A stretch of DNA of 64,000 nt, from positions 254,322 to 318,321 of the forward strand of contig MFRA01000005.1 of assembly GCA_001783215.1 (NCBI GenBank). The letters are read 5' to 3'. This stretch comes from Candidatus Magasanikbacteria bacterium RIFOXYD1_FULL_40_23 (GTDB lineage Bacteria; Patescibacteriota; Patescibacteriia; Magasanikbacterales; GWA2-37-8). Shown here piece by piece: positions 30,463-33,957 of the stretch; position 1 is the first letter of the stretch; each line of letters begins with the position of its first letter. Made by a program: the position numbers and the translations under genes. Under the pieces are notes generated by a model. The model did not search any database, was not told where the DNA came from, and saw nothing but the letters and a program-made list of their open reading frames with translations.

Positions 30463-33400
30463 ATGCAGAAATACGATCCGAAAAAAATTGAAAAAAAGTG
30501 GCAGAAATATTGGGAAAAGAATAAAACTTTTGAAGTGCAAGAAGATGCTAAAAAAGATAAATTTTATTCTTTGATTGAGTTTCCTTACCCGAGTGGCGAG
30601 GGTCTTCATGTTGGCCATCCACGCCCATTTACGGCCATGGATGTGATAAGCCGCAAAAAAAGAATGGAAGGCAAAAATGTTTTGTTTCCCATTGGTTTTG
30701 ACGCTTTTGGTTTGCCGACCGAAAACTTTGCTATTAAAACCGGTAAACCGCCAGCCGAAGTAACGAAAAAAAATATTGCCAACTTTACCCGCCAGCTTAA
30801 AATGCTTGGGTTTAGTTTTGATTGGTCCAGGCAGGTAGACACTACTGACCCAAATTATTATAAATGGACCCAAAAATTATTTTTGCAATTTTTTAAACAT
30901 GGTCTTGCTTACAAAAAAAACCAGCCAATTAACTGGTGTCCAAAAGATAAAATCGGTTTGGCAAATGAAGAAGTGGTAAATGGAAACTGTGAGCGTTGCG
31001 GCACTCCGGTAGAAAAACGAAACAAAGAGCAGTGGATGCTTGCCATTACCAAATATGCCGATAAGCTTTTGGATGGTTTAAAAAACGTAGATTATATAGA
31101 GCGCGCTCGTTTGCAACAAGAGAATTGGATTGGTAAAAGCGAAGGTGCCGAAGTAGATTTCCCTCTTCGCATGGTACCAGGCCAGACAGATGATAAACAT
31201 TTTGTAAAAATATTTACTACTCGCCCGGATACAATTTTTGGGGCAACTTTTTTGGCAGTCTCTCCAGAGCTTGCTAAGAGTTGGTTAGATATAGGTTGGC
31301 AGGCTAGTGAAGAAGTAAAAAAATATATAACTCAGGCGCTTGAAGCTCGTACCGCGGTAACTGCTCGTGAAGAACAAGAAAAAACTGGTATAAGTGCCGG
31401 CATTGTGGCAATCAATCCAGTTTCCAAAAAAGAAATTCCAGTTTGGATAACCAATTATGTAATGGGTGAAGTTGGTACGGGTGCAATTATGGGCGTGCCG
31501 GCGCACGACCAGCGTGATTTTGATTTTGCCAAAAAGTTTGGATTGCCAGTTAAACAGGTGGTTATGCAAAATATTGTGGTGGCAGGTGCCGCCGCACCAC
31601 GAGAGGGCAAAGATTTAGTGCAGCGTAAAGTAGTGACAGGTATTATTCATAATCCAAAAAATGACACTTTTTTACTTTTACGACGTGCAGATAAAGAAAG
31701 TTCTTTCGTTGGTGGTACCATTGAAAATGGCGAAGATGCTATTACAGCCCTACGTCGTGAAATTGTGGAGGAAACTGGATATACAGATTTTGAAATTAAA
31801 AGTACTTCTTTTCCTAATTTTTTTGGTAATGGCTATAAATTACGTATTGATAAAAATTGTTTGGACTTTGAATATTTTTATGCAGTTGAGCTAAAGAGCG
31901 AAGATCGTCAGGAAGTCAGCAAGGAAGAACTAGCAAAGCATGAACCATTTTTGGTACCACGCGCAGAAGTGTCTAAGACAATTACGCTTACAATGCATCA
32001 ATACATGTGGAAATATTATACAGAGGAAAAACCAAAGTATTTAATTTTTGATTTTGATGGGGTAATTGGTAATACTTTTGAGGCGTGTGCTAAGGCACAG
32101 ATGGTTATAGATAATAAAAGTAAGGAAGAGGCAGTTGAAGCAATGACAAGATATTTTAGCAGTAAGCCAAATCATGCCAAGGGGCACAGTCTTACAGAGA
32201 TAGAGATGGTTGCGAAGCTTGATTGGACGCGCAGATTTGGCGAAGAAATGGCAAAGCTAGAGTATTCATTATTTAGTAAATTTAATAAAGAAATAAAAAA
32301 CATACCAAATACAAAGGTTGCTATTATTTCTGCGGGTTCCGGATTATATATTAGAAATAGAATAGAAGAAACCGGCCTTAACCCAAGCCATGTTCTTACC
32401 TTTGAAGACCATCATTCCAAAGAAGAAAAAATAGAACAGGTCTGCAAAGATTGGGGAGTGTCTATGAAAGACGTTTATTATTTCACTGATTCCAAAGCAG
32501 ACGTATACGAATTGGAAGATTGTTTGGATCGTAAAAAAATAATCGGCTGTGCTTGGGGTTATTGCGGGTATGATCTATTGCGAGAATTGTTGCCAGAAAA
32601 CCAGGTATTAAAAAATCCAGAAGATATCCATTTGTTATTTGCAGATTCGGTTTACGAAAATGAAGGTGTGGCTGTGGAGTCAGAATTTTTAAATGGTTTA
32701 AAAACACCGGAAGCTAAACAAAAAATGATTAGTTGGTTAGAAGAAAATAGAATAGGCAAAAAACAGATAAATTATAAACTTCGCGACTGGGTTTTTTCCC
32801 GTCAGCGATATTGGGGTGAGCCAATTCCGCTTGTGCATTGCGAGAAATGCTCTGGCTGGGTTCCTCTTCCCGAAGATGAATTGCCGCTCAAATTGCCAAA
32901 AGTAGAAAAATATCAGCCAACCGATAATGGCGAATCTCCTTTGGCCGCAATGGAAAAATGGGTAAAAACTAAATGCCCAAATTGTGGCGGTCCGGCCAGA
33001 CGAGAAACAGATACTATGCCAAATTGGGCTGGTTCAAGTTGGTATTTTTTGGCCTATGCAATGGGTGGAGAAAAAAGATTAAAAGAAAAAGGCGATAAGT
33101 TTTGGGATAAAGAAATGCTAAAACATTGGCAACCTGTAGATTGGTACAATGGGGGAATGGAACATACAGTTTTGCATTTGTTGTATTCTCGTTTTTGGAA
33201 TCAATTCTTGTACGATATTGGTATGGTGCCAACACCCGAGCCGTATGCCAAGCGCACATCACACGGCATGATTCTCGCCAAGGGTGGAGAAAAAATGAGT
33301 AAATCCAAAGGAAATGTTGTAAACCCGGATGAAATGGTGGAACAGTTCGGCGCTGATGCTTTGCGCGCTTATATTATGTTTATGGGTCCGTTTGATCAGG

Positions 33401-33957
33401 CAGTAGAGTGGGATACAAATGGGCTAGTTGGGGTGAAAAGATTTTTGGATAAAGTATGGAATTTGCAAGAAAAAGTTGAAAATAAAATTACAGATACTAA
33501 AATTGAGACGGCTTTACATCAAACTATTAAAAAAGTTACCGAAGATATAGATGCGATGCGGTTTAATACAGCGATTGCCAAGATGATGGAATTGGTGAAT
33601 GAGATGTCAAAAGCGGATAAGATTTCAGTTGTAAATTATACTTATTTAGTTCAAATTTTGGCGCCATTTGCTCCACACCTGTGTGAAGAACTGTGGGATG
33701 TGCTTGGACATGAAAAATCATTAGCCTGTGAATCTTGGCCGCAATTTAATCCGGAATTAATAAAGGAGAGTGAAGTCACTTTGGCTGTCCAAGTAAATGG
33801 AAAATTGCGCGATACAATAACTGTGGCCGCAGACATATCGGAAGAAGAGGCCAAAAGGACGGCGCTATCAAGCGAAGCAGTTAAGAAGTGGCTAGAAGGT
33901 AAAGAGCCAAAAAAAGTTATCTATGTAAAAGGCAAGTTGGTGAGTGTGGTGGTTTAG
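30463..33957 (+). CDS. leuS: Leucyl-tRNA synthetase with a ~400-aa internal insertion carrying Nudix-hydrolase-like and HAD-hydrolase-like modules
   Basis: HVGH (class I HIGH motif), CP1/editing blocks ([34 protein letters not shown]), KMSKS, an anticodon-binding C-terminus. Insert at ~31570-32770 has [24 protein letters not shown] (perfect Nudix box Gx5Ex7REUxEExGU), [10 protein letters not shown] (HAD motif I) and VAIISAGSG. Confidence 0.9.
   Translation: [1164 protein letters not shown]

Follow-up and report, generated by a model that had tools for sequence, protein, structure and literature searches.

Aminoacyl-tRNA synthetases (aaRSs) are textbook cases of modular evolution. The leuS gene described here, which belongs to Candidatus Magasanikbacteria, bacteria of the Candidate Phyla Radiation (CPR), raises the question of whether a single open reading frame can encode a complete leucyl-tRNA synthetase (LeuRS) together with two unrelated hydrolases inside it and, if so, how they arrived there and what they might do. 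An earlier note on the 64-kb stretch of DNA analysed here (the window) had proposed a Nudix and a HAD-like hydrolase embedded in an intact LeuRS, and sequence motifs, Pfam and the profile TIGR00396 all bear out this proposal.

Two hydrolase modules in the editing domain of LeuRS

The window encodes one LeuRS, which is complete and of the bacterial type. The 1164-residue protein scored 973.3 bits against the equivalog profile TIGR00396 (leuS_bact; cut-off 548.4) and matched T. thermophilus LeuRS (1H3N) with E = 2e-206 in phmmer. The class I signatures HVGH (residues 49-52; 30607-30618) and KMSKS (residues 944-948; 33292-33306) are kept, as are the first zinc module CPKDK...CERC (residues 159-179), the second zinc knuckle CEKC...CPNC in the C-terminal half of the catalytic core (32839-32985) and the anticodon-binding domain (33493-33846). 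The CP1 editing domain was recognised by PF13603 with 179 bits. Its T-rich motif TTRPDT (residues 252-257) and its conserved Asp motif, a 15-residue stretch beginning at residue 338, align with those of T. thermophilus LeuRS, and the editing-site motifs of CP1 are intact as judged from the sequence. The protein has the whole fold in common with the bacterial LeuRSs of T. thermophilus (1H3N) and E. coli (4AQ7; TIGR00396), including both zinc modules and the T-rich and GTG...HDxRD motifs, but it carries about 355 extra residues in CP1 and apparently misses the leucine-specific domain, since residues 953/944 join T. thermophilus residues 593/637 in the alignment.

Table 1. Layout of the leuS open reading frame in the window
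Feature	Position	Strand	Basis
leuS ORF, 1164 aa + stop	30463..33957	+	continuous frame; TIGR00396
N-terminal half, Rossmann catalytic domain, residues 1-219	30463..31119	+	HIGH motif and first zinc module
CP1 editing domain, N-terminal part, residues 220-368	31120..31566	+	PF13603 profile positions 1-143
Nudix module, residues 369-520 including short linkers	31567..32022	+	Pfam; predicted by AF2 model
HAD-IA phosphatase module (predicted), C1 four-helix cap, residues 521-727	32023..32643	+	Pfam; predicted by AF2 model
CP1 editing domain, C-terminal segment, residues 728-770	32644..32772	+	aligned to T. thermophilus LeuRS
Catalytic core C-terminal half, anticodon-binding domain, C-terminal domain	32773..33954	+	profiles, motifs, T. 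thermophilus alignment

In the same alignment, residues 1-368 correspond to T. thermophilus 1-363 and residues 729-953 to 375-593, which leaves an extra sequence of about 351-360 residues (approximately 369-728) in exchange for about 11 residues (T. thermophilus 364-374). Approximately 43 residues of ordinary CP1 sequence (728-770) follow the insert before the chain re-enters the catalytic core at YKLRDW, and the insert is therefore nested within the editing domain. The earlier note had placed an insert of about 400 residues between CP1, taken to end with a 23-residue stretch (residues 345-367), and a conserved 19-residue block (residues 771-789) of the core; the large insert is confirmed, but it is shorter than that and lies inside CP1. 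The Nudix and the HAD module thus sit in tandem, in this order, in a variable stretch of the C-terminal part of CP1. The second zinc knuckle, which hosts α/β-hydrolase or HAD modules in relatives, is unoccupied here.

The N-terminal module matched PF00293 (NUDIX) over residues 388-503 with 51.3 bits (cut-off 21.1). Its 24-residue Nudix box (residues 417-440, with G418-Y440 at 31714-31782) reads G418-x5-E424-x7-R432 E433 I x E436 E437 x G439 Y440 against the consensus GX5EX7REUXEEXGU. The earlier note had tied its reading to the conservation of the Nudix-box Glu residues among orthologues: E433 and E437, like G418, are present in all 114 LeuRS-embedded Nudix domains, E436 and G439 in 113 and E424 in 102 of the 114. 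The AF2 model of the module (pLDDT 92.2, pTM 0.85) retrieved 582 PDB matches at E <= 0.001 in Foldseek, and the matches listed were all Nudix proteins. Its structural neighbours are minimal Nudix hydrolases such as 2AZW, the Aquifex Ap4A hydrolase 3I7U, NudI (3OGA/6DT3), RppH (4S2X and the Ap4A complex 7SP3) and NUDT2 (4IJX), with which it has in common the canonical Nudix box and a single-domain alpha/beta/alpha fold of about 140 residues (Foldseek E 1e-9 to 1e-7, TM approximately 0.65). Compared with these free-standing enzymes of the MutT/Ap4A-hydrolase/RppH type, the LeuRS Nudix is embedded in another protein, is only 17-22% identical and belongs to no equivalog, with RppH (32 bits, cut-off 118) and MutT (31 bits, cut-off 148) of NCBIfam far under their cut-offs. 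Motifs and model together point to a minimal MutT/Ap4A-hydrolase-like Nudix pyrophosphohydrolase with every catalytic motif kept. Another neighbour, mycobacterial MutT1 (5GGC, 6M72), is likewise a Nudix pyrophosphohydrolase covalently tied to a phosphatase, and it dephosphorylates nucleotides stepwise; however, its phosphatase is a histidine-phosphatase, from a superfamily other than HAD, and MutT1 is free-standing, not nested in an aaRS.

The C-terminal module matched PF13419 (HAD_2) over residues 527-681 with 32.7 bits (cut-off 23.8). HAD motif I is a 10-residue stretch (residues 527-536, with D530/D532 at 32050-32064), motif II is S623 within VAIISAGSG (residues 619-627), motif III is K653 and motif IV is D676/D680 within FTDSKADV (residues 674-681). 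D10, D12, S103, K133, D156 and D160 (numbering of alignment A1) are invariant in 69 sequences, the catalytic residues being conserved in embedded and free forms alike, and an 11-residue family-specific signature is also invariant. The AF2 model (pLDDT 96.8, pTM 0.92) shows a Rossmannoid fold with a C1 cap. The best PDB sequence match had E = 0.0016, and the comparison with NCBIfam remained below threshold (HAD-SF-IA-v1, 17.3 bits versus 23.3). The module is thus predicted to be a C1-capped HAD-IA (COG0546-like) small-molecule phosphatase with every catalytic motif kept; a C1 cap in HADs implies small substrates. It is 12-19% identical to COG0546-type HAD-IA phosphatases, namely the predicted phosphoglycolate phosphatases 2HSZ, 2HI0 and 2HDO and the BT2127 inorganic pyrophosphatase 3QU2. 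Unlike these, the LeuRS HAD family is physically tied to leuS, and the members seen are all from CPR lineages. Both modules hence pass the Pfam thresholds and are predicted with confidence to fold independently, in keeping with the domain assignment of the earlier note.

Could the insert nevertheless be an artefact, whether a chimeric assembly, a broken pseudogene or an element spliced out like an intein? The identical 1164-residue protein is encoded on 16 contigs of Candidatus Magasanikbacteria from separate ENA, JGI and NCBI assemblies and at least four independent samples, and the same junctions occur in three orthologues (P0122, P0140 and P0123). Together with the continuous frame, the 16 independently assembled contigs show that the gene is no chimera and, in line with the earlier note, no pseudogene; the one irregularity among related sequences is a homologue riddled with frameshifts on another contig (L001). 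Like an intein, the insert adds a long in-frame stretch to a conserved essential protein and is patchily distributed among close relatives. Unlike inteins, it comes without Hint/splicing motifs or a homing endonuclease and consists of conserved metabolic hydrolases, which are presumably kept in the mature protein. A Pfam search of the protein returned no Hint, intein or LAGLIDADG/endonuclease family at E <= 1, and the 11-residue sequences read at the two junctions lack the intein Cys/Ser...His-Asn-Cys/Ser/Thr pattern. An artefact of any of these kinds is hardly credible.

Inserts and a neighbouring phosphatase gene in CPR LeuRSs

The earlier note had read the architecture as a domain acquisition not described, to its knowledge, for LeuRS. 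It is no singular event: CPR LeuRSs form a large modular system, and the Nudix-HAD pair is one of its combinations. Inserts occur at several recurrent loops in 194 of 256 near-full-length relatives, a frequency biased upward by the ranking of hits against an insert-bearing query; with the same bias, about 40% of the sampled relatives carry a Nudix domain at the CP1 loop. The inserts comprise Nudix, α/β serine hydrolase, HAD, Ham1, GNAT, NTase-like and methyltransferase domains as well as unfamiliar folds, the same family can be placed at several different loops, and the lengths of LeuRSs range from about 770 to 1722 residues. Insert-free LeuRSs of about 770 residues have cores 76-78% identical to that of the 1164-residue protein. 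Among relatives with cores 78-88% identical, the module boundaries are clean and modules are gained or lost, and at least six architectures exist among cores at least 78% identical. For Nudix domains at one and the same loop, identity shows no correlation with core identity (Spearman 0.06): some pairs with cores about 80% identical have Nudix domains only 20-28% identical, and some inserts are more alike than their cores. The HAD at the CP1 site forms a single coherent clade (51-100% identical). No significant repeats flank the insert.

The same HAD subfamily is also encoded as a free-standing gene; of 12 informative loci, 9 have it directly upstream of leuS. In seven of these (L033, L035, L036, L038, L039, L040 and L043) it lies 39-107 nt upstream on the same strand. 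L042 has two tandem HAD genes upstream of leuS, and in L037 a gap of 1 kb holds a frameshifted Nudix gene, giving a HAD-Nudix-leuS row. These loci are deeply diverged, with identities of 46-61% for HAD and 44-76% for LeuRS. Elsewhere, the free HAD lies beside a HisRS-like gene (L002), beside a GATase gene (L008) or near a free Nudix gene (L034), not next to leuS. Collection scans with a HAD-only query found 7 of 11 true family loci inside LeuRS. Each sampled locus has one HAD copy, either free or embedded and never both, except for the two tandem free copies of L042. Among the fusions recovered, the HAD subfamily is joined only to LeuRS or to Nudix, the latter as a free HAD-Nudix fusion (P0092). 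LeuRS-tied hydrolases, as neighbouring genes or as swappable inserts, are thus widespread in CPR.

A class Ia synthetase bearing an unrelated enzyme domain has a counterpart in IleRS fused to GNAT (NCBIfam NF040702, 'ileS_w_GNAT'), a profile found among the weak matches of the 1164-residue LeuRS, but the host and the inserted enzymes differ, and in LeuRS the system is combinatorial and uses multiple sites. A 2026 survey classed the LeuRS editing domain as insertion-only and counted zero events in which it was the host (PMC13114784). CP1 serving as host here contradicts the generalisation of that survey that this domain never hosts (PMC13114784). Our literature search found no publication on a Nudix/HAD-bearing LeuRS or on the wider CPR pattern, and metabolic hydrolases with intact catalytic motifs nested in a bacterial LeuRS editing domain appear to be undescribed.

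Possible origin and function of the embedded modules

On balance, we favour, with some reserve, a LeuRS-associated two-step nucleotide pyrophosphatase/phosphatase module that was later embedded in the synthetase. LeuRS loops that tolerate insertion might repeatedly have taken up an operon neighbour, with modules gained, lost or replaced after capture. One conceivable route is a tandem duplication of HAD-leuS, after which the redundant halves of leuS were lost in frame. The function is the part of this model in which we place the least confidence: Nudix and HAD would act stepwise on a nucleotide by-product, the Nudix cleaving a nucleoside-polyphosphate, with Ap4A/Ap4N (from Leu-AMP and NTP) or non-canonical NTPs as leading candidates, and the HAD taking a phosphate off the product, perhaps NMP or PPi. 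Fusion could ensure 1:1 co-expression and nearness to LeuRS, leaving the aminoacylation chemistry unchanged. It is established that aaRSs produce Ap4N from aminoacyl-adenylate and that Nudix enzymes cleave Ap4N asymmetrically, LysRS being the aaRS stressed in this context (PMC13627108). Ap4A clean-up would be compatible with the structural neighbours of the Nudix model (Ap4A hydrolases, RppH, NudI and MutT). LeuRS is not known as a prominent Ap4A maker, which counts against the Ap4N proposal. The occurrence of the same families at different LeuRS loops disfavours a precise geometric coupling to either active site, and the unrelated insert types (serine hydrolase, GNAT, Ham1, methyltransferase and others) make a single shared substrate logic doubtful. 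Hydrolysis of misactivated adenylates, which the earlier note had also suggested, is chemically improbable with both folds, since acyl-phosphates presumably fall outside the substrate classes of Nudix and HAD enzymes.

The inserts could alternatively be passengers, i.e. unrelated house-cleaning enzymes fixed in a long, essential, constitutively expressed and insertion-tolerant LeuRS of streamlined CPR genomes, with co-expression as the only link. Many unrelated families at several recurrent loops, one family at several sites and the insert-free LeuRSs, which imply that inserts are dispensable for LeuRS function, all fit this explanation, as does the fact that Nudix, Ham1 and HAD nucleotidases are classical house-cleaning families. 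A free HAD gene kept directly upstream of leuS across deep divergence is, however, more specific than random hosting, and so are the restricted fusion partners of the HAD subfamily, even if the adjacency still suits an operon of unrelated housekeeping genes; we regard mere hosting as possible yet rather doubtful. The HAD could be an inorganic pyrophosphatase of the BT2127/PpaX type that locally pulls Leu + ATP -> Leu-AMP + PPi forward, would also clear PPi released by the Nudix and would stand in for, or add to, a canonical PPase in these reduced genomes. PPi is the only product that LeuRS has in common with Nudix NTPases and Ham1; besides its linkage to leuS, the HAD lies beside a HisRS-like gene at one locus; and the invariant or near-invariant H51, H123, H130, H131, K133 and K136 (alignment A1) would presumably suit a polyanionic substrate. 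Yet the closest structural neighbours are generic COG0546 phosphatases at the low identities given above, freely diffusible PPi would offer little kinetic gain by fusion, and there is no clear reason for LeuRS alone among aaRSs to need PPi removal, which makes such a role unlikely.

Rapid turnover among close cores and the lack of correlation between Nudix and core identities could alternatively reflect conflict, with the inserts being swappable protective enzymes that would detoxify LeuRS-directed antibiotics mimicking aminoacyl-adenylates or would mend toxin-modified tRNA 3' ends, or selfish in-frame elements that an essential gene cannot easily shed. CP1 is the domain receiving the tRNA 3' end, where a pyrophosphorylated CCA, for example, would be repaired by Nudix and then by a 3'-phosphatase, and the repertoire resembles antibiotic-modifying enzyme classes (hydrolases, GNAT, NTase and methyltransferase). 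But the C1 cap is typical of small-molecule, not macromolecular, substrates, which speaks against a 3'-phosphatase acting on tRNA. At the CP1 site the HAD tracks one clade, and the cassette has neither mobility or homing genes nor an intein/Hint signature nor significant flanking repeats. In PADLOC, the Nudix gave only a partial match of its Nudix-box region to the candidate PDC-S07 (33 bits, residues 20-72), merely a generic Nudix box, and HAD and α/β hydrolase gave no match. We consider conflict quite improbable as the driving force. Equally improbable is its broadest form, an arms race in which CPR LeuRS is a platform for exchangeable cassettes (Nudix, HAD, serine hydrolase, Ham1, GNAT, NTase and methyltransferase), swapped between lineages by recombination in the conserved LeuRS flanks, that would guard leucylation from chemical attack, either by destroying aberrant nucleotides or adenylate-mimicking LeuRS inhibitors on the spot or by mending tRNA-Leu 3' ends modified by toxins.

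With their varied lengths, loops and cassettes and the conserved HAD-leuS gene pair, CPR LeuRSs offer a natural experiment on how domains enter an essential enzyme. Should the substrate of the Nudix/HAD pair be Ap4N, non-canonical NTPs or PPi, as in the two-step module that we favour, nucleotide quality control or alarmone turnover would be physically tied to tRNA charging, and in organisms of minimal metabolism. The variable length of LeuRS can confuse CPR marker-gene phylogenies. Public databases misname these LeuRSs as 'hypothetical protein', 'alpha/beta fold hydrolase' or 'class I tRNA ligase family protein'; the database protein identical to the leuS product described here (P0121, from a Candidatus Magasanikbacteria MAG) is annotated as 'hypothetical protein'.

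Position and authenticity of the insertion in the leucyl-tRNA synthetase

The leuS gene of the window is an uninterrupted plus-strand ORF (30463-33957) encoding 1164 residues, and all the motifs quoted in an earlier note on this DNA were found at their places in its translation. By every sequence criterion tested, the product is a bacterial leucyl-tRNA synthetase (LeuRS): it scored 973 bits against the bacterial LeuRS equivalog TIGR00396 (cut-off 548), Pfam matched the class I core and the anticodon-binding domain as well as the editing domain, and the CP1 editing-site motifs are intact. 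The earlier note had placed an insert of about 400 residues between CP1 and the catalytic core. The extra sequence is indeed present, but its size and location had to be revised. In a phmmer comparison with PDB sequences, residues 1-368 pair with residues 1-363 of Thermus thermophilus (Tth) LeuRS and residues 729-953 with Tth 375-593, so that about 355 residues stand in place of the 11-residue stretch Tth 364-374. Residues 728-770 form an ordinary CP1 C-terminal segment, and the core is re-entered at YKLRDW. According to this alignment, the insert is nested within the editing domain, which in turn interrupts the Rossmann fold, rather than lying between CP1 and the core. The leucine-specific domain that precedes KMSKS (33292 region) in the enzymes of T. 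thermophilus and E. coli appears to be missing from the window LeuRS and from its ~770-aa relatives, and the length of these plain LeuRSs of the same clade agrees with that. A few relatives carry an insert at the position of that domain, which is a minor site.

Features of the window LeuRS (residue numbers) and of its surroundings (nucleotide positions)
Feature	Position	Remark
HVGH	residues 49-52	LeuRS motif
LeuRS editing domain	residues 220-370	Pfam
CP1 motif block, 23 residues	residues 345-367	
NUDIX	residues 388-503	Pfam, 51.3 bits (cut-off 21.1)
Nudix box	residues 417-440	
HAD motif I block, 10 residues	residues 527-536	
HAD_2	residues 527-681	Pfam, 32.7 bits (cut-off 23.8)
VAIISAGSG	residues 619-627	HAD part
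FTDSKADV	residues 674-681	HAD part
Conserved core block after CP1, 19 residues	residues 771-789	
KMSKS	residues 944-948	LeuRS motif
Small ORF	28973-29365	matches 23S_rRNA_IVP / bAvd four-helix-bundle family
152-aa ORF	29848-30306	immediately 5' of leuS
Hairpin and U-run	~30325-30390	just before leuS
Direct repeat, copy 1: TTGCCAGTTAAACAGGT	31543-31559	encodes LPVKQV
Direct repeat, copy 2: TTGCCAGAAAACCAGGT	32590-32606	encodes LPENQV
Two tandem receiver-only response regulators	34018-34413, 34419-34814	directly 3' of leuS
Big-domain protein, 1672 aa	35724-40742	between response regulators and kinase
PAS-domain histidine kinase	40688-43153	after Big-domain protein
Sua5/YciO/YrdC-DUF4015 fusion	56741-58504	

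The continuous reading frame reflects a genuine gene and not a chimera. The exact product occurs on 16 contigs with the same neighbour genes (including ENA ERZ27254750, JGI 3300025088 and 3300003358, and NCBI GCA_001783315.1), and the insert junctions are common to the aligned orthologues. A full-length search also returned a 100% identical 1164-aa protein (P0121) from a Candidatus Magasanikbacteria MAG, labelled "hypothetical protein". An intein was rejected because Pfam detected no intein, Hint or endonuclease family in the protein even at E <= 1. GC3 was 0.237 in the Nudix part, 0.314 in the HAD part, 0.34-0.355 in the LeuRS core and 0.32 ± 0.03 in other genes, which gives no clear compositional signal of recent foreign origin. 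Among repeats looked for at the edges of the insert, the one suggestive pair is an imperfect 17-nt direct repeat (82% identical; copies 1047 nt apart and in frame) that flanks it. We rejected this pair as a target-site duplication since its frequency is that expected by chance for the region and since copy 2 coincides with a conserved motif at the HAD C terminus; even so, it may represent microhomology that played a part in the fusion.

The chromosomal setting is ordinary housekeeping, with DnaE, RNase Y, TruB, IF-2 and thioredoxin on the 5' side of leuS and the response regulators, the kinase, ComEC and GroEL on its 3' side. Rfam searches of the window and the leuS upstream region returned two tRNAs and sub-threshold noise, with no T-box or other known leader. 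The strong hairpin before leuS resembles an intrinsic terminator, with an RNA fold z-score of only -2.0 and no Rfam match. The ORF immediately 5' of leuS has no Pfam match and a GC content of 0.46-0.48 against 0.33-0.38 around it. Proteins of the bAvd type, the family matched by a small ORF further upstream, are accessory proteins in diversity-generating retroelements.

Fold and conservation of the inserted Nudix and HAD domains

The identification of the two domains was upheld by Pfam matches above cut-off and by every sequence and fold criterion tested for the Nudix and HAD superfamilies; neither domain reached an NCBIfam equivalog, and no functional subfamily (Ap4A hydrolase, MutT, RppH, Gph or PPase) was singled out. 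AlphaFold2 models computed with family alignments indicated that each segment folds confidently on its own (pLDDT 92.2 and pTM 0.85 for Nudix; 96.8 and 0.92 for HAD). The Nudix-box Glu residues, whose loss the earlier note would have taken as counter-evidence, are kept: across 114 LeuRS-embedded Nudix domains G418, E433 and E437 never vary, and E436 and G439 occur in 113, R432 in 103 and E424 in 102. Likewise, the D530/D532 nucleophile pair, S623, K653 and D676/D680 are all invariant in 69 sequences of the HAD family, whose embedded and free members share an unusual 11-residue signature. Judged from this conservation and from the predicted structures, the inserted Nudix and HAD domains are genuine autonomous units whose catalytic residues are constrained.

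The Nudix model is similar to small enzymes of the MutT type, namely 2AZW, Aquifex Ap4A hydrolase, NudI, human NUDT2 and mycobacterial MutT1, and also RppH, including its Ap4A complex. The HAD family profile had a sole match among PDB sequences (3MC1, E = 0.0016). Among HAD phosphatases, the C1 cap goes with small-molecule substrates and not with macromolecules, which argues for a small-molecule substrate here. The Nudix segment by itself gave no match at E <= 1e-3 in a word-index protein search, which reflects a limit of the tool, since Nudix relatives of 73% identity exist.

Insert repertoire of LeuRS relatives and association of the HAD family with leuS

We aligned 269 LeuRS relatives from two large searches to an HMM built from 44 short LeuRSs and counted insertions of at least 45 aa. 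With automated site labels that make sites and counts approximate, and with frequencies inflated upward because matches were ranked against an insert-bearing query, insertions were found at the CP1 stretch used by the window insert in 157 proteins, between the two Cys pairs of the second zinc knuckle in 57 and at the start of CP1 in 38. Further recurrent sites include those after the zinc-knuckle CPxC (where inspection located the HADs that the automated mapping had wrongly labelled "position 509"), before VDWYNGG and at the position of the leucine-specific domain. By clustering and Pfam, and with the same upward bias, we recognised 113 Nudix inserts (102 at the CP1 loop, the remainder at six other positions), 66 α/β Ser_hydrolase inserts, mostly at the zinc knuckle, 35 of the window HAD family and eight Ham1/ITPase-like, besides GNAT, NTase-like, second-type Nudix, methyltransferase and several unknown folds. 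Among 256 near-full-length LeuRSs in this biased sample, 62 are insert-free, 110 carry Nudix, 67 an α/β hydrolase and 34 HAD; Nudix and HAD occur together in ten, and in tandem within one loop only in P0121 and its relative P0122. The most heavily loaded LeuRS among those sampled is a 1722-aa Taylorbacteria protein (P0234; contig L006, 1464-6632) that combines an α/β hydrolase and a HAD with three Nudix domains. A related LeuRS on contig L001 (3950-7884), with Nudix in CP1 and HAD at the zinc knuckle, is split over many frames, either through indel errors in a long-read assembly or because the gene is decaying.

LeuRSs whose cores are 78-88% identical to that of the window come in six or more architectures: insert-free, with HAD or the α/β hydrolase alone, or with one of the pairs Nudix+HAD, HAD+α/β hydrolase and Nudix+α/β hydrolase. 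In an alignment of eight such proteins the module boundaries are clean and in frame. For example, P0123 lacks Nudix and has a HAD 90% identical to that of the window, P0140 retains Nudix without HAD, and P0147 has neither. At the same loop, Nudix identity shows essentially no correlation with that of the cores (Spearman 0.06). Cores of about 80% identity may carry Nudix domains just 20-28% identical, whereas in the vertically related pair of P0140 and the window LeuRS these are 73% identical, and a few inserts exceed their own cores in mutual similarity. This decoupling implies that Nudix modules were replaced repeatedly or that different Nudix lineages were captured independently. The HADs fall into two groups, a coherent one at the CP1 site (51-100% identical) and another at the zinc knuckle.

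A search with the insert also found about 115 free-standing HADs of ~205 aa at about 50% identity, all from the Candidate Phyla Radiation (CPR) where a lineage was named, and fusions only to LeuRS or, in reverse order, to Nudix (P0092). At seven loci (L033, L035, L036, L038, L039, L040 and L043) leuS is preceded on the same strand, at a distance of 39-107 nt, by a free HAD gene, and at L042 by two HADs in tandem. In the Nomurabacteria locus L037 (3640-4640), a Nudix gene whose box is canonical and whose frame is broken by two frameshifts occupies the 1-kb gap between the free HAD and leuS, making an unfused HAD-Nudix-leuS row. A degenerate Nudix-like gene upstream of the L036 HAD did not match the embedded-Nudix profile and was left out of the counts. 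These HAD-leuS loci are deeply diverged (HAD 46-61%, LeuRS 44-76% identity), and the upstream genes differ in two of them. HD-domain genes of the YfbR-like 5'-nucleotidase type, another kind of nucleotide-hydrolase neighbour, lie just 5' of the leuS cluster in L011 (3451-4083; a putative case, identified by reading its sequence) and L039 (1400-1984).

Three free HADs sit away from leuS. In L002 (4970-6618), a 344-aa HisRS-like gene, for which a catalytic core but no anticodon-binding domain was detected, shares 4 nt with the start of the HAD gene, suggesting that the family can also couple to another aaRS-like protein. In L008 the HAD overlaps a GATase gene, and in L034 it lies 1 kb from a free Nudix matching the embedded-Nudix profile. 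Scans with the HAD alignment alone gave at least six and at least five true family loci in GTDB and metagenomes, respectively (small samples); among the matches listed, 7/11 lie inside LeuRS, with Taylorbacteria, Saccharibacteria and further CPR represented. In each sampled locus the HAD was free or embedded, never both, and no second copy was found within the 64-kb window.

Proposed origin and function, and alternative explanations

These results show an intact LeuRS in which one CP1 loop bears two hydrolases, both autonomous and conserved in their catalytic residues, with a physical tie to leuS at the family level. Most likely the HAD gene, and probably Nudix genes also, began as operon neighbours of leuS and were captured into tolerant LeuRS loops. 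If HAD-leuS-HAD-leuS arose by tandem duplication and the redundant leuS halves were then lost, the neighbour would be left at an arbitrary internal position. Such capture would explain why one family occupies several sites, is embedded only in LeuRS, and then lacks the free upstream copy.

We propose, with low confidence, that Nudix and HAD act as a two-step nucleotide hydrolase. The Nudix domain would cleave a nucleoside polyphosphate, either Ap4A/Ap4N or non-canonical NTPs, the latter fitting the Ham1/ITPase modules in the same LeuRS scaffolds. Synthetases form Ap4N from the aminoacyl-adenylate, and Nudix enzymes cut it asymmetrically (PMC13627108). The HAD would then dephosphorylate the NMP product or hydrolyse PPi; a pairing of this kind is already known from mycobacterial MutT1, where a phosphatase domain is attached to a Nudix. 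Since the same modules occur in different loops, co-expression and proximity would be expected rather than strict channelling, and we see no reason to expect altered leucylation chemistry.

Among the alternatives, pure passenger hosting of unrelated enzymes by LeuRS has perhaps one chance in a few; the variety of folds inserted is compatible with it, while fusion together with conserved adjacency, as seen for HAD and leuS, is a standard comparative-genomic sign of functional association. A dedicated pyrophosphatase role of the HAD is improbable. Conflict-driven cassettes would suit the rapid turnover of modules, and we consider them quite unlikely, neither domain belonging to a PADLOC defence family. 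An artefact is, given the recurrence on 16 contigs, a negligible possibility.

As the earlier note had supposed, the architecture appears to be undescribed: no description of a LeuRS with Nudix, HAD or α/β-hydrolase inserts was found in the literature searched. In a 2026 domain-insertion survey, the LeuRS editing domain is classed as insertion-only, without a single host event (PMC13114784), an entry that LeuRSs of the window type contradict, and the CPR aaRS paper of Mukai et al. (PMC5370408) mentions other fusions but not these. Public databases contain Nudix/HAD LeuRSs without recognising them as such, and the pattern of inserts across the whole system is more interesting than the single window protein. 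Enzyme-bearing class Ia synthetases are already known from the NCBIfam model of an IleRS with a GNAT domain. The window also encodes a fusion of Sua5/YciO/YrdC (tRNA t6A synthesis) with DUF4015 (putative glycosyl hydrolase), a second translation-related enzyme in this genome with a hydrolase-like domain attached.
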